Shown here: positions 8,484-57,257 of the stretch, one piece after another
How positions within the stretch are numbered: position 1 is the first letter of the stretch
How the letters are laid out: every line of letters begins with the position of its first letter
From: Defluviitaleaceae bacterium
GTDB lineage: Bacteria > Bacillota > Clostridia > Lachnospirales > WQUN01
Direction of reading: 5' to 3'
Assembly: GCA_009780185.1 (NCBI GenBank)
Contig: WRAN01000010.1
Span: 6,450-70,449 of the forward strand
DNA: 64,000 nt
Program-made: the position numbers and the translations under genes
The notes under the pieces: model-generated
The model's input: only the letters and a program-made list of their open reading frames with translations
Told to the model about the DNA's origin: nothing
Database searches by the model: none

Positions 8484-9005
8484 ATGCTTGAGGCAATGTT
8501 ATTTGCCAGCCCAGAAAGCGTGCCACTGGCAAGCCTTGCTGAAGCGCTGGGTTGTGATATTCCCCTTACCAGAAACCTATTGACCCGTATGGCGGAAGCC
8601 TATGCCGCCAACCAATCTGGGATACAGTTACAAGAAACAGATGACTCCTATCGCCTTTGTACTAATCCTATTTACTATCAATCTATAGAGCGTTTGTTAA
8701 AGTTAAAGCCACGCAAAGCCCTATCTCAAGCTATGCTAGAAACCTTGGCAATAGTCGCTTACAAACAGCCGGTGACTAAGGCAATAATAGAAGATATAAG
8801 AGGCGTAAACGCCGACCACGCAGTGAACAGGCTGATGGAATACGGCCTGGTAACAGAAAAAGGGCGGCTGGACGGCCCAGGGCGGCCTATTCTGTTTGGT
8901 ACCAGTGATGAATTTTTGCTGTACTACGGCCTTAGAAATGTTGAGGAATTGCTTGCGGCTAATAAATTTGATAGCACAGTTCAGCTGACCTTGGAAAGTG
9001 AATGA
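8484..9005 (+). CDS. scpB: Segregation and condensation protein B
   Basis: Contains MLEAMLFASPESV...LETLAIVAYKQPVTKAIIEDIRGV, the two winged-helix pattern of ScpB, and follows scpA. Confidence 0.92.
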   Translation: MLEAMLFASPESVPLASLAEALGCDIPLTRNLLTRMAEAYAANQSGIQLQETDDSYRLCTNPIYYQSIERLLKLKPRKALSQAMLETLAIVAYKQPVTKAIIEDIRGVNADHAVNRLMEYGLVTEKGRLDGPGRPILFGTSDEFLLYYGLRNVEELLAANKFDSTVQLTLESE

Positions 9006-9053
9006 TGTAATGGGTATTTAATGATTTTGGGATATATGCTTTTATTTATGGTA

Positions 9054-9062
9054 TGGTATAAT
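9054..9062 (+). promoter_or_regulatory. Extended -10 promoter element of the AT-rich three-gene cassette
   Basis: TGGTATAAT lies 54 nt upstream of ATG 9116. RBS AAGGGAGA lies 9101-9108. Confidence 0.5.
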
Positions 9063-9115
9063 TCTACAACATTCTTCAAAAATCATAACATGATATACAT
9101 AAGGGAGACTGGATT

Positions 9116-9799
9116 ATGGCAAATGTAGAAATTGATACACCGCTCCAAGGTTATAGATACAGGAGGGATATCGATCTATTTAATAAAGCGGTTAATATAG
9201 CCCGTGAACTAATTAGCTCAGGAGATGTTTTGATTTTATTTGGATATAATAGATTTTGTGTATCAGCTGAGATTGTCTTTCCTGAAGAAGATTTCCAGGA
9301 AAGATTTCAAAGCATCTCATATGACGACTTTGTTGAAATCTTGGAAGAGGAAATAGTATGTATTATCGAGAAAATTCTACTAAACGATATAAATGAGAAT
9401 CCAAGAAGCTGGTTGGCGGAAATAATCGACGACGAAAGCGTGGTTAATCACTGTGTGGATATATTTTACAAAAAGGTTGAGTGTGTTAATACTCAGATAA
9501 TTGATGAGAGCTATAGAAGCTTCTTCGACCTCAAGCTAAATCCTTTAAAAAATAAAATTGCAGGTTTTGACTATAGCATATGTAAGCATGTATCAGACGA
9601 AAACAGTAATATTGCATTTGCACAATTAACCATTGCTACTTCAGGAAAGCTTGTATCTGTCATGGGCTCCCCAAAGGACAGGTTGATGATTTTGGATAAT
9701 GCGGATAGGATTAGCTTTGTTTGCGATAAAAACGACATTGATAATCTAGTGCTAGAGTTGCTTTCCATAAAGATAGCGCTTGAGGAAGAGGAGAGCTAA
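9116..9799 (+). CDS. Hypothetical protein, cassette A gene 1 (227 aa, acidic C-terminus)
   Basis: ORF with a good RBS. No family motif recognised. AT-rich codon usage. Confidence 0.7.
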   Translation: MANVEIDTPLQGYRYRRDIDLFNKAVNIARELISSGDVLILFGYNRFCVSAEIVFPEEDFQERFQSISYDDFVEILEEEIVCIIEKILLNDINENPRSWLAEIIDDESVVNHCVDIFYKKVECVNTQIIDESYRSFFDLKLNPLKNKIAGFDYSICKHVSDENSNIAFAQLTIATSGKLVSVMGSPKDRLMILDNADRISFVCDKNDIDNLVLELLSIKIALEEEES

Positions 9800-10453
9800 T
9801 TGAGTACTATAAGAATAGAAAAAGCTATGTTAGATTCCGGATTAGAATCAACATATAAAAGTGTAGAGGAAGGCATATCTCTGGCCCAGCGGAATAGTGG
9901 CTTTGAAGTTAGTTCAAATCCTGGGCGAGTAATTGATGCCGCTACATTATTTGTTCAGTCCAATAATATTGATGCTGAGTCATATGTTTTTGAAACCCGC
10001 AAAGCAAAACATATCAACAATCATAAAGCTTATGCCCTTCGCAACCAAAAAAGAGGCATTAGTATGCTTCATGGTGGCTATAATAGGGATATGGATAATT
10101 TTTCTTATTACAATAGAATGAGAAACGTGATTGAGTACCTTGCAGAACTAAAAGAAGCCGATGATATACCCTCTCAGGTTCAGCATTATGCGCCAATATT
10201 GCGTGTTATTAAGGAGATAATTAGCAAGTTGGATCCTGAGATAGAGCGTTATCTTCAGCGAACTCTTTTGCTTTTTGTTACTATGCTTAAGCGCCATAGC
10301 TGTGAGGAAGTAATGACATGGGACAAAGTTGATGCGATGATCCATGTCGCAAGTGATTGCATGATAAATACGATAGATAAAGAATCTTTTCTGGCTCATC
10401 ACGACTATCTGGAAGAGCATGGTCTCGACATGTTTCCATCGCTGGAGGATTAA
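9800..10453 (+). CDS. Hypothetical protein, cassette A gene 2 (217 aa, TTG start)
   Basis: The TTG directly follows the TAA of gene 1 and is preceded by GAGGAGAG. No family motif recognised. Confidence 0.65.
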   Translation: MSTIRIEKAMLDSGLESTYKSVEEGISLAQRNSGFEVSSNPGRVIDAATLFVQSNNIDAESYVFETRKAKHINNHKAYALRNQKRGISMLHGGYNRDMDNFSYYNRMRNVIEYLAELKEADDIPSQVQHYAPILRVIKEIISKLDPEIERYLQRTLLLFVTMLKRHSCEEVMTWDKVDAMIHVASDCMINTIDKESFLAHHDYLEEHGLDMFPSLED

Positions 10454-10454
10454 C

Positions 10455-11201
10455 ATGGCTGCCGTTCTAGATACGACTGTGCAAATCGATAGGATTTTTG
10501 GCAGCACAGATAGAAAATCGCGTATTCGTGACATGATGGCTAATAATGAATGCTATAGTACCCAATATGTTCTGGGAGAGTACTATGCCACTATCGTCCG
10601 TGACTGTACAATGATATATAGTATCGTTGCACAAAATGATGATATATACGAAGCAGAGAAAAAAATAAATGAAAAAGCCTTTGGGCGTAGTAAAGACAGG
10701 GCACATAAAATATTTATTTTTCTCCGCGAATTGTTCGGGAATGATATGGATTATATAAAAATGCACATGGAGTCCTTTTTTGATTTACTGATCCAGAAGT
10801 TCTATAAAGGAATTAATAAAAAACTACTGAGTGGTTCAATGTGCAACCGCGCTAATGCTCGTATTGAATACATTGAAGGTTGTCCTAAACTAAGAAACTT
10901 AAATTGCAGGAAAACAGATAATCACTGTGATATATCGTCTTTATGGAAAAATAATTTCTCGAAAATAGACCAACTGAAATATGATTATAACATCACTGAG
11001 AGAACAAAGAATGCATTATTGCAATCCTCTGCAATAAACCCTCCAAAAGGAAATGCTTGCAGAACTCTTGGTGATTGTATCATTTGTTTAGAAACGATTG
11101 ATGGAAATGTTGATTCAGTATGCACAACCAATAGGGATGACTTTAAGCCTATTACCGACTGCCTAGGATTAGAGCTGATTGTTCCTAATTATAAGAAATA
11201 G
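10455..11201 (+). CDS. PIN-like nuclease domain protein with a ~165-aa insert carrying a Cys4 cluster, cassette A gene 3 (248 aa)
   Basis: GGAGG lies 6 nt upstream of ATG 10455. Acidic tetrad contexts are AAVLD6TTV, VLGE42YY, TLGD207CIICLE and TTNRD228DFKPI. The Cys cluster is C130-x12-C143-x7-C151-x6-C158. Confidence 0.65.
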   Translation: MAAVLDTTVQIDRIFGSTDRKSRIRDMMANNECYSTQYVLGEYYATIVRDCTMIYSIVAQNDDIYEAEKKINEKAFGRSKDRAHKIFIFLRELFGNDMDYIKMHMESFFDLLIQKFYKGINKKLLSGSMCNRANARIEYIEGCPKLRNLNCRKTDNHCDISSLWKNNFSKIDQLKYDYNITERTKNALLQSSAINPPKGNACRTLGDCIICLETIDGNVDSVCTTNRDDFKPITDCLGLELIVPNYKK

Positions 11202-11232
11202 CAGTGCCTTTCCCTCATAAGTACTAAAACCA

Positions 11233-11276
11233 AAACCTCCATCATACAGTAACGTATGACCAGATGGAGGTTTTTT
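11233..11276 (+). terminator. Rho-independent terminator closing cassette A
   Basis: AACCTCCATC ... GATGGAGGTT followed by TTTTTT. Confidence 0.75.
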
Positions 11277-11305
11277 AATGGACAAATATAAAGGAGGGCC
11301 AGGGC

Positions 11306-12874
11306 GTGGCATTTGAACTTGTAAGGGAGCAAGTCTTCCTAGATCAAAGCGTAGGTAGCGAGCAAACACAGATTATGCTTGAGGGGGATATAATAGTCCC
11401 AGACTCAAGGCCGGATATGGCTGTGCTTTTGCAGACAGAAGAAAAAATAATCATAGACCGTACAGAAGTAGGTGCAGACAGGGTCAACTTCGTAGGCCGG
11501 CTTAATATTTCCCTGCTATACATATCCAAAGGCCCAGAACAGCAAGCCTGCGCCGTAAATCTTACTCGCCAGATAGATGACTTTATCAATGTAGACGGAG
11601 TAACAAAGGATATGTGGGTCAATGCGAAAGCAGAAATCACCCATATAGATTACCGGATGCTAAATGACCGCAAAGTAAATTATCGTGCCATTGTAACCGT
11701 TAATATTAACGCAGAACGGTCGGATGCCCACGAAATGGTCGTACATATCCATGATGTGCCGGAAAATCAGCTCCTTAAAAATAATATTAATATCAACCGT
11801 ACAATAGAGCATAAACAGGAGCGCTTCCCTGTAAAGGACTCTCTGCTATTGCCATCCAGCAAGCCCAATGTACGGGAGATATTATTAGTTACTGCCAATA
11901 TCACCAACAGAGATATCCGTATCAATAATGGCAGGGTCAATTTAAGCGGTGAAATCTTAGTAACCACCTTATATCGCGGCGATACAGACGACAGCGTAAT
12001 AGAATTTGTAGAGAGCGAGATACCTTTCAATGGCCCAATAGATGTATCAGGCGCAAAGGATGATATGCTTGCAGATGTGCTTCTACAGGTAATGGATCAT
12101 CATGTAGTAGTACGCTCAGACGACGATGGAGAAGACAGAGTGCTGGAAATTGAAGTGTCTGTAGGGGTGCAGATGAAGGTCTACAGCACAGAAGTACTGC
12201 CTATTTTGGAAGATGCATATGTAATCAACCAGCGTCTGACTTTGGGTAAAACTCTAGTGCGCTACCCGCGGTTGGTATGTCTAAACCGCAACCAAGCACC
12301 TATTAAAGAAGTAGTAACATTAGGTGGCAATGCGCCCAGTATGCTTCAAGTGTTCCGCGTAAAAGGCAACGCCTACCTGGACGAAGTAAAAGTAATAGAG
12401 GATAAAGTGGTAGTAGAAGGGGCAATCACCACTGATATTCTATATGTAGCAGAAAGCGATTCGGCACCGCTGGGCAGCTTCCGCACGGTTATGCCATTTA
12501 GGCAGGTAATTGAAGCAAAAGGCGCACGCCCCAATATGAGAGTAAATGTAGATACTTCTATAGATCATGTGGCCTTTAGTATGCTAAGCGGCCAAGAAAC
12601 GGAAGTCCGGTTCCTTCTTACATTTAATACCCAAGTAATAGAAGAAGAAGAGACTCGGATTATACACAATATAGAGTTCGCGGATTTAGAGCCGGAAGCG
12701 CTGGCTAATATGGCCAGTATGACGGTGTATATTGTGCAGCATGGGGATAATCTTTGGAAGATTGCGAAGAAATATAATACCGCTATCGACGAGCTGCTGG
12801 CAGTCAACGATATCGAGCATCCCGGCAAGATTGTACCGGATCAAAAGCTTTTGATACTTAAAAAGGGTTTATAG
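11306..12874 (+). CDS. DUF3794 (SPOCS)-type repeat protein with a C-terminal LysM domain (spore-coat/cortex-associated type)
   Basis: GTG start behind AAAGGAGGG. C-terminal LysM: YIVQHGDNLWKIAKKYNTAIDELLAVNDIEHPGKIVPDQKLLI. Confidence 0.75.
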   Translation: MAFELVREQVFLDQSVGSEQTQIMLEGDIIVPDSRPDMAVLLQTEEKIIIDRTEVGADRVNFVGRLNISLLYISKGPEQQACAVNLTRQIDDFINVDGVTKDMWVNAKAEITHIDYRMLNDRKVNYRAIVTVNINAERSDAHEMVVHIHDVPENQLLKNNININRTIEHKQERFPVKDSLLLPSSKPNVREILLVTANITNRDIRINNGRVNLSGEILVTTLYRGDTDDSVIEFVESEIPFNGPIDVSGAKDDMLADVLLQVMDHHVVVRSDDDGEDRVLEIEVSVGVQMKVYSTEVLPILEDAYVINQRLTLGKTLVRYPRLVCLNRNQAPIKEVVTLGGNAPSMLQVFRVKGNAYLDEVKVIEDKVVVEGAITTDILYVAESDSAPLGSFRTVMPFRQVIEAKGARPNMRVNVDTSIDHVAFSMLSGQETEVRFLLTFNTQVIEEEETRIIHNIEFADLEPEALANMASMTVYIVQHGDNLWKIAKKYNTAIDELLAVNDIEHPGKIVPDQKLLILKKGL

Positions 12875-55299: not shown

Positions 55300-56472
55300 A
55301 TGAGATATATGGAAAAGTTATTTTGTCCCCATAGAGCAAAGCCATTTACAATAAGTAAGCGTAAAGTCAAACTTGACAGCAATATAAAGCGGTGGAGATT
55401 TGAGTTTGATACAGGCAACGGACAACTTACTGGAAGGCAATTGGCACAGCTATATAGTGCAGTTAGCACATTTTTGGATAAGTACAACTCAGGCATGTAT
55501 ATATTTGCTTTGAATATGAGAACTTTTGACTTTCAGGACAAAAATGTCTATATTTTTTTGGAACTGTTGGCATACTATATTTTAAAGCATGGGAAGTTTA
55601 CTTTTGAAGTCTTTTTTGATCAACCTGCGTTTTACATGTTGGAGTCTGTGGGATTTCAAAATACAGCGTTGTATAGGTTTATGATGAATCAGGGGATATT
55701 AAAATATATTGAAAATAAAACGGATTTCATAAGCTTTTACGAAAATCCTCAACATTTGACCGATAAATGGTACCGGAGAGTCTTGAACAGTGATGCCATT
55801 GCAGTGGGAAATATATCAGGTCAGATTGCAGAAGAAGTCGAATCCTTTCTAAAAAGGTATGATATTCCTCACTCTACGACGGTAAACACATATAGTGTAG
55901 TACTTGAGCTGATATCGAACGCAAAACATAATGATGGAGACTGTATATTAGATATTGACATCTGTAATAATGTTATTAATATGTCATTTATCAACCTTTT
56001 TGATGGTAGGATGTTTGATAAGCTGGGTTTCATGTATAGAGATGATAAGCTTTTTCAGAATGTTCAAGAAAAGATACACATGGCTATTGGGTACCATAGT
56101 TTACATTTTGGAGATATGTATACAGAGGATGATTTTTACTTTATATCTACCTTCCAGGAGGGAATCACAACTCGTCTCGAGCCAAGTGGAGGCACAGGAC
56201 TTACAACAGTTGTTAATGCAATTGCGGAAGAAGATGAGAATGCCTACTCCTATGTATTAAGTGGCAATAACCTATTGTTTTTGCGCAAAAGCTTCTTAGG
56301 CGATGGTGGAAGTATTGTAGGATTTAATAAAACAAACGATTATTTTAGAGATATACCCGAAAGGAGTATAATTGATAGGTGTCAGCTATACATACCCGGA
56401 GTGGTATTTCAACTAGTATTTAGTTTTGGGGTGAGTGATAATGGAAAAAGAAAAAATTATGCTGGAGTTTGA
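55300..56472 (+). CDS. GHKL-superfamily ATPase-like protein, cassette B gene 1 (390 aa)
   Basis: N-box-like VVLELISNAKHND. G2-like PSGGTGLTTV. No obvious His-kinase dimerisation/phosphoacceptor region. Very AT-rich. Confidence 0.6.
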   Translation: MRYMEKLFCPHRAKPFTISKRKVKLDSNIKRWRFEFDTGNGQLTGRQLAQLYSAVSTFLDKYNSGMYIFALNMRTFDFQDKNVYIFLELLAYYILKHGKFTFEVFFDQPAFYMLESVGFQNTALYRFMMNQGILKYIENKTDFISFYENPQHLTDKWYRRVLNSDAIAVGNISGQIAEEVESFLKRYDIPHSTTVNTYSVVLELISNAKHNDGDCILDIDICNNVINMSFINLFDGRMFDKLGFMYRDDKLFQNVQEKIHMAIGYHSLHFGDMYTEDDFYFISTFQEGITTRLEPSGGTGLTTVVNAIAEEDENAYSYVLSGNNLLFLRKSFLGDGGSIVGFNKTNDYFRDIPERSIIDRCQLYIPGVVFQLVFSFGVSDNGKRKNYAGV

Positions 56473-56737
56473 AAACAAGTATTCAAAGATTGGTGACTTC
56501 GACTACGGAAAAGATATATACGAGCAACAAGCAAAAGACCGTGTTGTTTTCGATGGCGAAAATATTATCGCGTTTCCTGACTACGTAGACTTCGTATCTC
56601 CATCTTTTATTCAAGGATTTATAGCTGTACCTATTGGCAATGTAGGAAAAGAGAATGTCTTAGAGTACATTAGCTTTGAATCCCCGCGAAGTGAAGTAGT
56701 TAAGCAGATTTACAACGGCTTACGCAGAGCTATGTGA
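56441..56737 (+). CDS. STAS-like (DUF4325-type) small protein, cassette B gene 2
   Basis: ATG lies behind GGGGTGAG and overlaps the gene 1 end. VVFDGENIIAFPDYVDFVSPSFIQGFI resembles the DUF4325 'LDFxGVxxxsxSFxxEf' core. Confidence 0.5.
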   Translation: MEKEKIMLEFENKYSKIGDFDYGKDIYEQQAKDRVVFDGENIIAFPDYVDFVSPSFIQGFIAVPIGNVGKENVLEYISFESPRSEVVKQIYNGLRRAM

Positions 56738-56747
56738 GGATATCGTT

Positions 56748-57257
56748 ATGGAGTATGGGGAGCTTGTAGGGGTAGTTATAAATGCATCAGAGGGTACGTC
56801 TTTAATGTCATATATCCATATGATAGGCTCGCTAATGTGGATGGGGCTTTCTGCTATAGCAATGATTATTTTCTCTGTGAAAAATTATAAGATGAGCGAG
56901 TCTTATAATAAAAAGACATTGAAGAATCGTGTTTTTGATAGGGTCTTTCAAAAGGTGATTGAGGATAGTCTAATTAAGCTGGCTGATATAATTCCTGCAA
57001 TCTCAGATTTTAATTTTGACGAATTTAAAGATGTTCTGGAGTCTTTTACTGTGGGTATAGAGGTATATAAGTATCATGATAAGCCTTTTTATGAAGAAAT
57101 TTGGGATTTAGTTTATAAGATAACAGACGATATTATCAAAATTGAAAACGCTACAAGTTCGTCTAGTAAATCAAAATGGTTTGCATCTTTGGAAAGTCAT
57201 ATTCAAAAAATATTTGACGTTATTGAAAGGTATTGTACAGACTTAGATGCGAATTAG
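56748..57257 (+). CDS. Hypothetical single-pass membrane protein, cassette B gene 3 (169 aa)
   Basis: TM is IHMIGSLMWMGLSAIAMIIFSV, followed by a helical soluble domain. No family motif recognised. Confidence 0.6.
   Translation: MEYGELVGVVINASEGTSLMSYIHMIGSLMWMGLSAIAMIIFSVKNYKMSESYNKKTLKNRVFDRVFQKVIEDSLIKLADIIPAISDFNFDEFKDVLESFTVGIEVYKYHDKPFYEEIWDLVYKITDDIIKIENATSSSSKSKWFASLESHIQKIFDVIERYCTDLDAN

Follow-up and report, generated by a model that had tools for sequence, protein, structure and literature searches.

A horizontally mobile three-gene operon of Clostridia combines a predicted COMMD-like protein with a predicted PIN nuclease split by a cysteine-bearing insert

VapC, the PIN nuclease of VapBC toxin-antitoxin (TA) modules, is paired with one antitoxin of ~80 aa that has a DNA-binding domain. 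In tripartite TA systems (omega-epsilon-zeta; toxin-antitoxin-chaperone) three genes are co-transcribed, with the toxin gene last and the genes of accessory proteins upstream. A PIN domain is also present in Nob1, a universal ribosome-maturation factor that carries a zinc ribbon with CxxC pairs. Here we describe a three-gene cassette, hereafter the trio, found in a 64-kb stretch of DNA (the window) from the metagenome-assembled genome (MAG) of a Defluviitaleaceae bacterium. Its last gene, ORF3, codes for a predicted VapC-like nuclease, and its first, ORF1, for a protein that is COMMD-like by predicted structure. The components have known folds, and the three-gene system is absent from all libraries searched.

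The COMMD fold is best known from the CCC core of Commander (8f2r, 8p0w), where a ring of COMMD1-10 is joined by the coiled-coil proteins CCDC22 and CCDC93 in a membrane-trafficking complex that contains no nuclease. Prokaryotic COMMD-like proteins are defined by a six-helix HN domain followed by a COMM domain of three antiparallel strands and an extended helix; solved members of the fold dimerize through the COMM domain and build eight- or ten-membered rings, ring formation having been shown experimentally (Liu et al., Nat Commun 2026, PMC13392464). The same authors report such proteins beside T6SS-like genes in Myxococcota, give their function as unknown and mention no link to a nuclease, a toxin or defence (PMC13392464). 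Our own literature search found no linkage between COMMD-like and PIN proteins.

The trio is made up of the following genes:

9116-9799, + strand: ORF1, 227 aa, acidic (pI 4.4), COMMD-like
9800-10453, + strand: ORF2, 217 aa, with a TTG start abutting the ORF1 stop codon
10455-11201, + strand: ORF3, 248 aa, predicted VapC-like PIN nuclease

Re-reading of the sequence bore out the close packing of the three ORFs given in a preliminary description of this DNA. The ORF1 stop codon (TAA, 9797-9799) is directly followed by the TTG of ORF2 at 9800, behind GGAG, and the ORF2 stop codon (TAA, 10451-10453) is separated by one nucleotide from the ATG of ORF3 at 10455, behind GGAGG. A longer ORF3 starting at ATG 10419 was rejected: in the alignment, all homologues begin level with the first residue encoded from ATG 10455, immediately before a conserved (L/I)(D/E)TT motif.

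The trio is a compact, horizontally mobile operon. ORF3 has only 12 relatives in an index of 5.8 billion proteins. A word-indexed search with ORF1 or ORF2 returned only the query proteins themselves, and their homologues were recovered from the loci around the ORF3 relatives. In five unrelated contexts, namely the window and the contigs encoding the relatives P0004, P0008, P0009 and P0011, the nuclease gene is preceded by two genes of similar size, which BLASTP shows to be homologous to ORF1 and ORF2. The contexts of the trio are:

scpB / trio / sipL (window)
secDF / trio / galK
NTP-transferase / trio / DegT, within a polysaccharide cluster
gpsA / trio / spoIVA
peptidase S11 / trio / histidine-kinase-like ATPase

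A scan of 185,579 genomes (one per GTDB species) found 27 loci, hosted mostly by Lachnospiraceae and also by Defluviitaleaceae, one Bacillota MAG and two archaea-binned contigs. With hidden Markov models (HMMs) built from five trios, ORF1, ORF2 and ORF3 were found together, in the same order and on the same strand, in ~25 species, ORF2 being recognised between the other two in ~25 loci; the self-contained unit postulated at the outset thus recurs at different loci. Intergenic gaps are mostly -1 to 15 nt. ORF1 homologues number only ~22 in a full scan of 1.84 billion representatives, all of them 207-233 aa long, and some ORF1 clusters occur on hundreds of contigs.

As judged from their sequences, the three genes are inherited and diverge as one unit, because the pairwise identities within each protein track those within the other two (matrix correlation r = 0.88-0.90, Mantel p < 0.0005). 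They do so at different paces: mean pairwise identity falls from 0.41 for ORF3 to 0.30 for ORF1 and 0.24 for ORF2. Both partners are acidic in most loci (pI ~4.4-5.9), and ORF3 is near neutral to basic. An acidic, faster-evolving partner beside a slower-evolving nuclease is a pattern also seen in toxin/antitoxin pairs.

At all 29 of 29 loci the GC content of the trio is 4-16 points below that of its flanks. In the window, the cassette has a GC fraction of 0.364 against 0.451 in the 5-kb flanks, which places it at about the 1st percentile among 2.2-kb windows of the 64 kb; the counts first used to call it AT-rich (22 G+C in 9121-9180 against 31 in 8521-8580) are exact. The neighbours, two per side at 28 loci (107 proteins), belong to 159 Pfam families, none of which occurs more than 4 times, and look like housekeeping genes: pyrD/pyrK, CTP synthase, AddB and ABC transporters.

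Several copies are decayed. Lachnospiraceae bacterium 3-1 has two copies of the module, L024 and L037, one of them intact; in the second, truncated copy, L037, ORF1 is missing and ORF3 is truncated. ORF1 has also been lost at L028, and ORF2 is truncated at L036. At L030:3091-3765 a single ORF of 224 aa corresponds to an in-frame ORF1(1-125)::ORF2(87-224), in which the HN-like domain of ORF1 leads straight into the C-terminal domain conserved in ORF2. It may have arisen by deletion, or else represent a natural fusion, which would hint at joint action of ORF1 and ORF2.

Some loci stand out by their hosts. In one abundant gut species (L001-L005) the ORF3 homologue lies on >55 contigs; in those that were read, the trio sits between the genes of an NTP-transferase and a DegT aminotransferase, inside a cluster for polysaccharide biosynthesis, with a DDE transposase nearby on one contig. 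Two contigs with the trio, L034 and L038, come from archaeal bins (MAGs of Methanobacteriota and Methanosarcinales). Mis-binning is possible for L034, which is similar to the Lachnospiraceae type; L038 has diverged, with G41 and the N226/D229 motif altered and a middle gene that the ORF2 HMM does not detect.

The fold of ORF3 was modelled with AlphaFold2 (AF2) from an alignment of 12 sequences (pLDDT 90.1, pTM 0.89); for both ORF3 and ORF1, all five models reach a pLDDT of 86-92. The best Foldseek matches in the Protein Data Bank (PDB) are VapC and other PIN structures: 3zvk (prob 0.99), 5ecd (TM 0.66 on target), 5h4g and 1y82, with the PIN domains of SMG6 and EST1A also among the top matches. 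The E-values are weak, at least 0.12, which we ascribe to a large insert. The alignments reach both ends of the query and are therefore consistent with a split fold. According to the model, ORF3 is a VapC-like PIN domain divided by an insert of ~140 aa. A Foldseek search of the BFVD viral structures with ORF3 gave nothing.

The positions of the predicted catalytic residues and of the insert are:

10470, + strand: D6, predicted catalytic residue of ORF3
10578, + strand: E42, predicted catalytic residue of ORF3
11073, + strand: D207, predicted catalytic residue of ORF3
11139, + strand: D229, predicted catalytic residue of ORF3
10635-11051, + strand: ORF3 insert, ~140 aa, residues 61-199, helices and a beta hairpin (AF2 secondary structure)

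No PIN-clan Pfam profile matches full-length ORF3 above threshold. With the insert spliced out, PF01850 is matched by only 2 of 18 members, with an E-value of 0.16. With E-values this weak and the Pfam PIN model essentially unmatched, the PIN assignment rests on the predicted fold and the motifs. Among 28 homologues, D/E6, E42 and D207 are kept in all and D229 in 27; the full set of invariant or near-invariant residues is D/E6, T7, T8, Q10, R13, G41, E42, G206, D207, E213, N226 and D229. The peptide contexts quoted when the PIN nuclease was first suggested are literally present in ORF3. Three of the four acidic positions named then stand, but the fourth is D229 and not its neighbour D228, which is variable. 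The local contexts LDTT, GE, GDxxI and TxNxxDF are ones that we take to be typical of VapC, and the four acidic residues come in the same order as there. Thus both the fold and the conserved residues agree with the PIN-type nuclease proposed from the start. ORF3 departs from VapC in its split fold, its four invariant cysteines and the missing Pfam match.

Within the insert, R78, R82, F116, C130 (nt 10842), C151 (10905) and C158 (10926) are invariant, the two arginines lying on one helix. A fourth invariant cysteine, C202 (nt 11058), follows shortly after the insert and precedes D207 by 5 residues. Exactly four cysteines are thus invariant in the 28 homologues; C143 and C33 are not. The series C130-x12-C143-x7-C151-x6-C158 first noticed in ORF3 does exist, but its second member has to be dropped, and C202 completes the set. 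The spacing of the conserved residues (x20, x6, x43) contains no CxxC pair, which speaks against the zinc knuckle initially considered; a classical knuckle or ribbon was rejected, as neither paired CxxC nor CX2CX4HX4C ligands are present. The conservation pattern suggests that the four cysteines probably staple the insert to the catalytic core beside D207, via a Zn or Fe-S site. Nob1 likewise combines a PIN nuclease with a cysteine-based element, putatively metal-binding in ORF3, but the cysteines of ORF3 are singly spaced and its gene is accessory; none of the best 50 of 69 Foldseek matches of ORF3 is a Nob1 structure.

ORF1, for which no family had been recognised from sequence, is COMMD-like by its AF2 model. 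The model (pLDDT 91.7, pTM 0.86), built from an alignment of 20 sequences out of the representative search, has two domains:

residues ~19-141, + strand: helical N-terminal (HN-like) domain of ORF1 (AF2 model)
9554-9793 (residues 147-226), + strand: COMM-like domain of ORF1 (AF2 model)

Six helices (19-34, 57-63, 69-88, 97-103, 107-127 and 131-141) are followed by strands 147-159, 165-176 and 197-203 and a helix, 205-226, a topology that agrees with the published two-domain definition. A beta hairpin (residues 38-53) and a short helix (186-194) are extras that set ORF1 apart from the described prokaryotic COMMD-like proteins. All top five Foldseek matches are COMMD or COMMD-like and cover both domains. 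The best, 9q6a/9q6c, is an octameric COMMD-like protein from a Flavobacteriaceae bacterium (E 8e-5, prob 1.0 and about 231 aligned columns against 9q6a_A); the fourth and fifth are the human COMMD subunits 8f2r_G and 8p0w_E, with E-values of 3-5e-3. Faint sequence matches point the same way: COMM_domain (PF07258) is hit by 2 of 26 ORF1 members at 15-17 bits (cut-off 22.4), in the correct C-terminal position, and COMMD1_N by 1 of 26 (E 0.0018). ORF1 shares with 9q6a/9q6c the two-domain architecture, but profile searches detect no sequence similarity; the trio also ties it strictly to a PIN nuclease, whereas the published family is mentioned with none. PDB sequence searches with HMMs of ORF1, ORF2, ORF3 and the COMM region of ORF1, and with two single ORF1 homologues, gave nothing relevant.

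The middle gene is the least recognisable, and here the preliminary description, which saw no family in it, still holds. An alignment of 25 homologues (A4) shows that ORF2 varies in its N-terminal half and is conserved in a C-terminal domain:

10112-10450 (residues ~105-217), + strand: conserved C-terminal domain of ORF2 (alignment A4)

This domain of ~110 aa ends in an acidic tail (FPSLED, FPEEE or MPAWE). Pfam scans of the individual members yielded weak, scattered and sub-threshold matches only, several of them to coiled-coil families, and a profile HMM found no sequence match in the PDB. ORF2 is thus a fast-evolving, putatively helical protein. Like Commander, the trio may thus pair a COMMD fold with a helical, maybe coiled-coil partner; any equivalence of ORF2 to the CCDC proteins is pure speculation by analogy.

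We compared the insertion site in the window with that of 18 close relatives by BLASTN. The features concerned are:

8965-11220, + strand: inserted cassette without counterpart in close relatives (BLASTN), low GC
9054-9062, + strand: candidate extended -10 element TGGTATAAT, read from the sequence, with a weak -35
11232-11280, + strand: terminator-like hairpin (11232-11274) with 12-bp perfect arms, and T-run

Upstream of the cassette the window carries pheT, a gene for an M50-like membrane protein, scpA and scpB, and downstream a gene for a SipL/SPOCS-LysM protein (sipL, 11306-12874). Nucleotide homology to the relatives ends at ~8963 and picks up again at ~11216-11236, so that the inserted segment takes in the divergent final ~40 nt of scpB. 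The trio is missing from the junction in close relatives; it is also absent from all 80 metagenomic loci encoding SipL relatives. In the closest ones (SipL 83-91% identical) the scpB-sipL gap is filled by other cargo: a polysaccharide deacetylase; a PIG-L enzyme with an MFS transporter; or an AriA-like AAA_15 ATPase accompanied by small partners and by a GNAT acetyltransferase. In this last case, L049:2526-5630, the ATPase matches PADLOC AriA at 3e-33, and proteins of 162 and 226 aa without a family are encoded as well. Because L049 carries other cargo there, the junction behaves as a variable hotspot. The low GC of the cassette everywhere, together with its absence from the same junction in close relatives, fits a recent arrival by horizontal acquisition, as had been supposed. 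We found no convincing flanking direct or inverted repeats that would mark insertion scars.

Small TA-like pairs were noted upstream of sipL in two relatives. L046:5072-5823 encodes a P-loop protein resembling Zeta_toxin (Pfam 2.4e-5) and a partner of 63 aa, and L056:841-1534 a HicA/HicB-like pair, recognised by eye only.

The regulatory elements first assigned to the cassette fared unevenly. The element TGGTATAAT is indeed present, but its -35 is poor and a consensus scanner did not call it as a promoter; its sequence may nonetheless serve as one. The hairpin is real (-21.6 kcal/mol, z -3.9, better than all 200 shuffles), but it does not belong to the cassette. With its T-run it is kept upstream of sipL in relatives devoid of the trio (alignment A8; L041, L045, L046, L048 and others), ~30 nt 5' of the sipL ribosome-binding site, whatever lies further upstream; a terminator owned by the cassette was rejected on these grounds. 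The hairpin probably terminates the trio operon all the same, though part of the sipL upstream region, where it may act as a terminator insulating sipL or as a regulatory leader. Scans for Rfam families and for tandem repeats gave no match, which makes an RNA antitoxin or riboswitch unlikely.

Elsewhere in the window, 55300-57257 forms a second low-GC block (~0.36), the lowest 2.2-kb window of the 64 kb. Its three + strand ORFs (390, 100 and 169 aa) have no obvious identity, and the block may be another accessory module.

With middling confidence, we propose that the trio is a conflict system, of the tripartite TA or abortive-infection type, in which the three proteins form one complex around a latent nuclease. 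The type is suggested because fast-evolving partners, mobility, foreign GC and decayed copies match such modules. ORF3 would be an active, metal-dependent nuclease of the VapC type, its substrate-facing region replaced by the helical insert of ~140 aa. ORF2 would be an adaptor or inhibitor, and ORF1 an oligomeric platform whose acidic ring, together with ORF2, could keep several nuclease copies bound or silent. ORF3 would be freed or activated by a trigger, which could be phage infection, stress, or the loss or turnover of a partner protein. The nuclease would then cut cellular RNA and arrest growth, as in tripartite TA and abortive infection; both its toxicity and its neutralisation by the partners are presumed here, as are the RNA substrate and the bound metal.

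A number of results weigh against this proposal. No member of the trio scores above threshold in PADLOC, Pfam, NCBIfam or PHROGs; in accord with the early statement that the trio maps to no named system, the only signal in PADLOC-DB v2.0.0 is a weak match of 2 of 12 ORF3 homologues to PDC-S05, a candidate profile of 55 positions (E 0.0012), with nothing significant for ORF1 or ORF2. As to the defence islands raised in the preliminary description, the homologues at 28 loci adjoin diverse housekeeping genes, and the 107 neighbouring proteins show no enrichment of defence-island genes, integrases or transposases; the scpB-sipL junction of L049, however, carries the AriA-like ATPase. No ORF3 homologue was found in collections of plasmids and phages (tblastn) or in IMG/VR (pattern scan), so carriage on a sequenced mobile element is not supported. 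At ~200 aa each, the partners are large for antitoxins, and the 227- and 217-aa proteins match no DNA-binding antitoxin family (AbrB, RHH, HTH, PhD). ORF2 has no family, solved-structure match or fold assignment. Finally, the global TM-score of the COMMD match of ORF1 is low (0.34-0.35), and no COMMD chain is reached when PDB sequences are searched with profiles of ORF1 or its COMM region.

The best surviving alternative, which we consider unlikely, is a three-component type II TA system in the manner of omega-epsilon-zeta, that is, a selfish addiction or stress module with no anti-phage role. In it, ORF1 would act as regulator, ORF2 as antitoxin and ORF3 as toxin, with the conserved C-terminal domain and acidic tail of ORF2 binding the active-site groove of the PIN domain. 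The gene order fits: as in tripartite TA systems there are three genes with the candidate toxin last, and as in VapBC they are tightly coupled, with acidic partners upstream. ORF2 is acidic and the fastest-evolving of the three, single trios lie scattered among housekeeping genes, a common situation for TA loci, decayed copies exist, and TA-like genes lie near sipL in relatives (the Zeta_toxin match of L046 and, by eye only, the HicAB-like pair of L056). The protein families, however, are unrelated to those of tripartite TA systems, and scans of family libraries detected no omega-type repressor or SecB-type chaperone in the trio. Two partners of ~200 aa, 2-3 times the size of typical VapB antitoxins, take the place of one; no DNA-binding fold was detected in either, and ORF1 resembles an oligomeric ring scaffold, not a repressor. 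Plasmid carriage, too, was not found.

We also weighed, and think quite improbable, a complex that processes RNA or DNA in a restricted set of lineages as part of normal cell physiology, possibly linked to sporulation. The trio lies directly 5' of sipL in the window and of spoIVA in L008-L010 from pig gut (L008:8832-10307), and in C. difficile the SipL and SpoIVA proteins interact in spore-coat assembly. Most hosts belong to families of Clostridia (Lachnospiraceae, Defluviitaleaceae); the trio runs in the direction of its housekeeping neighbours, the gap on its upstream side often being short enough to suggest co-transcription, and it is stable in one abundant gut species (>55 contigs). Against this, sporulation genes appear in only 2 of ~25 contexts, so that the position beside sipL and spoIVA is probably a coincidence. 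Sporadic distribution, foreign GC at every locus, pseudogenised copies and the absence from 80 sipL-bearing relatives are also hard to reconcile with a normal cellular role.

It is very improbable that modelling from shallow alignments produced false PIN-like and COMMD-like folds, the three proteins being unrelated to nucleases or COMMD rings and their function fully open: the alignments do hold only 12 (ORF3) and 20 (ORF1) sequences, the PIN E-value of 0.12 is weak, the COMMD global TM-score of 0.34 is low and the Pfam PIN and COMM matches are sub-threshold, but all five models of each protein are confident (pLDDT 86-92), PIN structures head the ORF3 list, span both halves of the fold and reach a TM on target of 0.66, the four catalytic motifs are conserved in VapC-typical local contexts, and the top five ORF1 matches are all COMMD over both domains, with independent, faint Pfam COMM_domain matches correctly placed.

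Whatever its exact role, the nuclease represents an unrecognised PIN-toxin architecture, with a split fold, a four-cysteine insert and two large partners. The module appears to lie outside defence islands and is missed by all current profile libraries, and so shows what surveys based on islands or profiles overlook. If it is a conflict system, as we favour, it would be one that is common in gut Lachnospiraceae.

For the COMMD-like family, the trio offers the first candidate functional partner of the bacterial proteins, and the strict, co-evolving operon link to a PIN nuclease gives one of their branches a testable functional context. A broader and rather doubtful idea is that, in mobile conflict systems, nuclease effectors are docked on the oligomeric COMMD-like rings of prokaryotes and regulated by them. 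Were it true, the trio would be its founding example: a ring, a helical adaptor and a PIN nuclease stapled by four cysteines would make up a new class of toxin-immunity or anti-phage system, and the ring with its helical partner would represent the bacterial precursor logic of the COMMD-CCDC core of Commander. The chance that the trio defines a new class, and provides a first functional context for the COMMD-like proteins of prokaryotes, is non-negligible.

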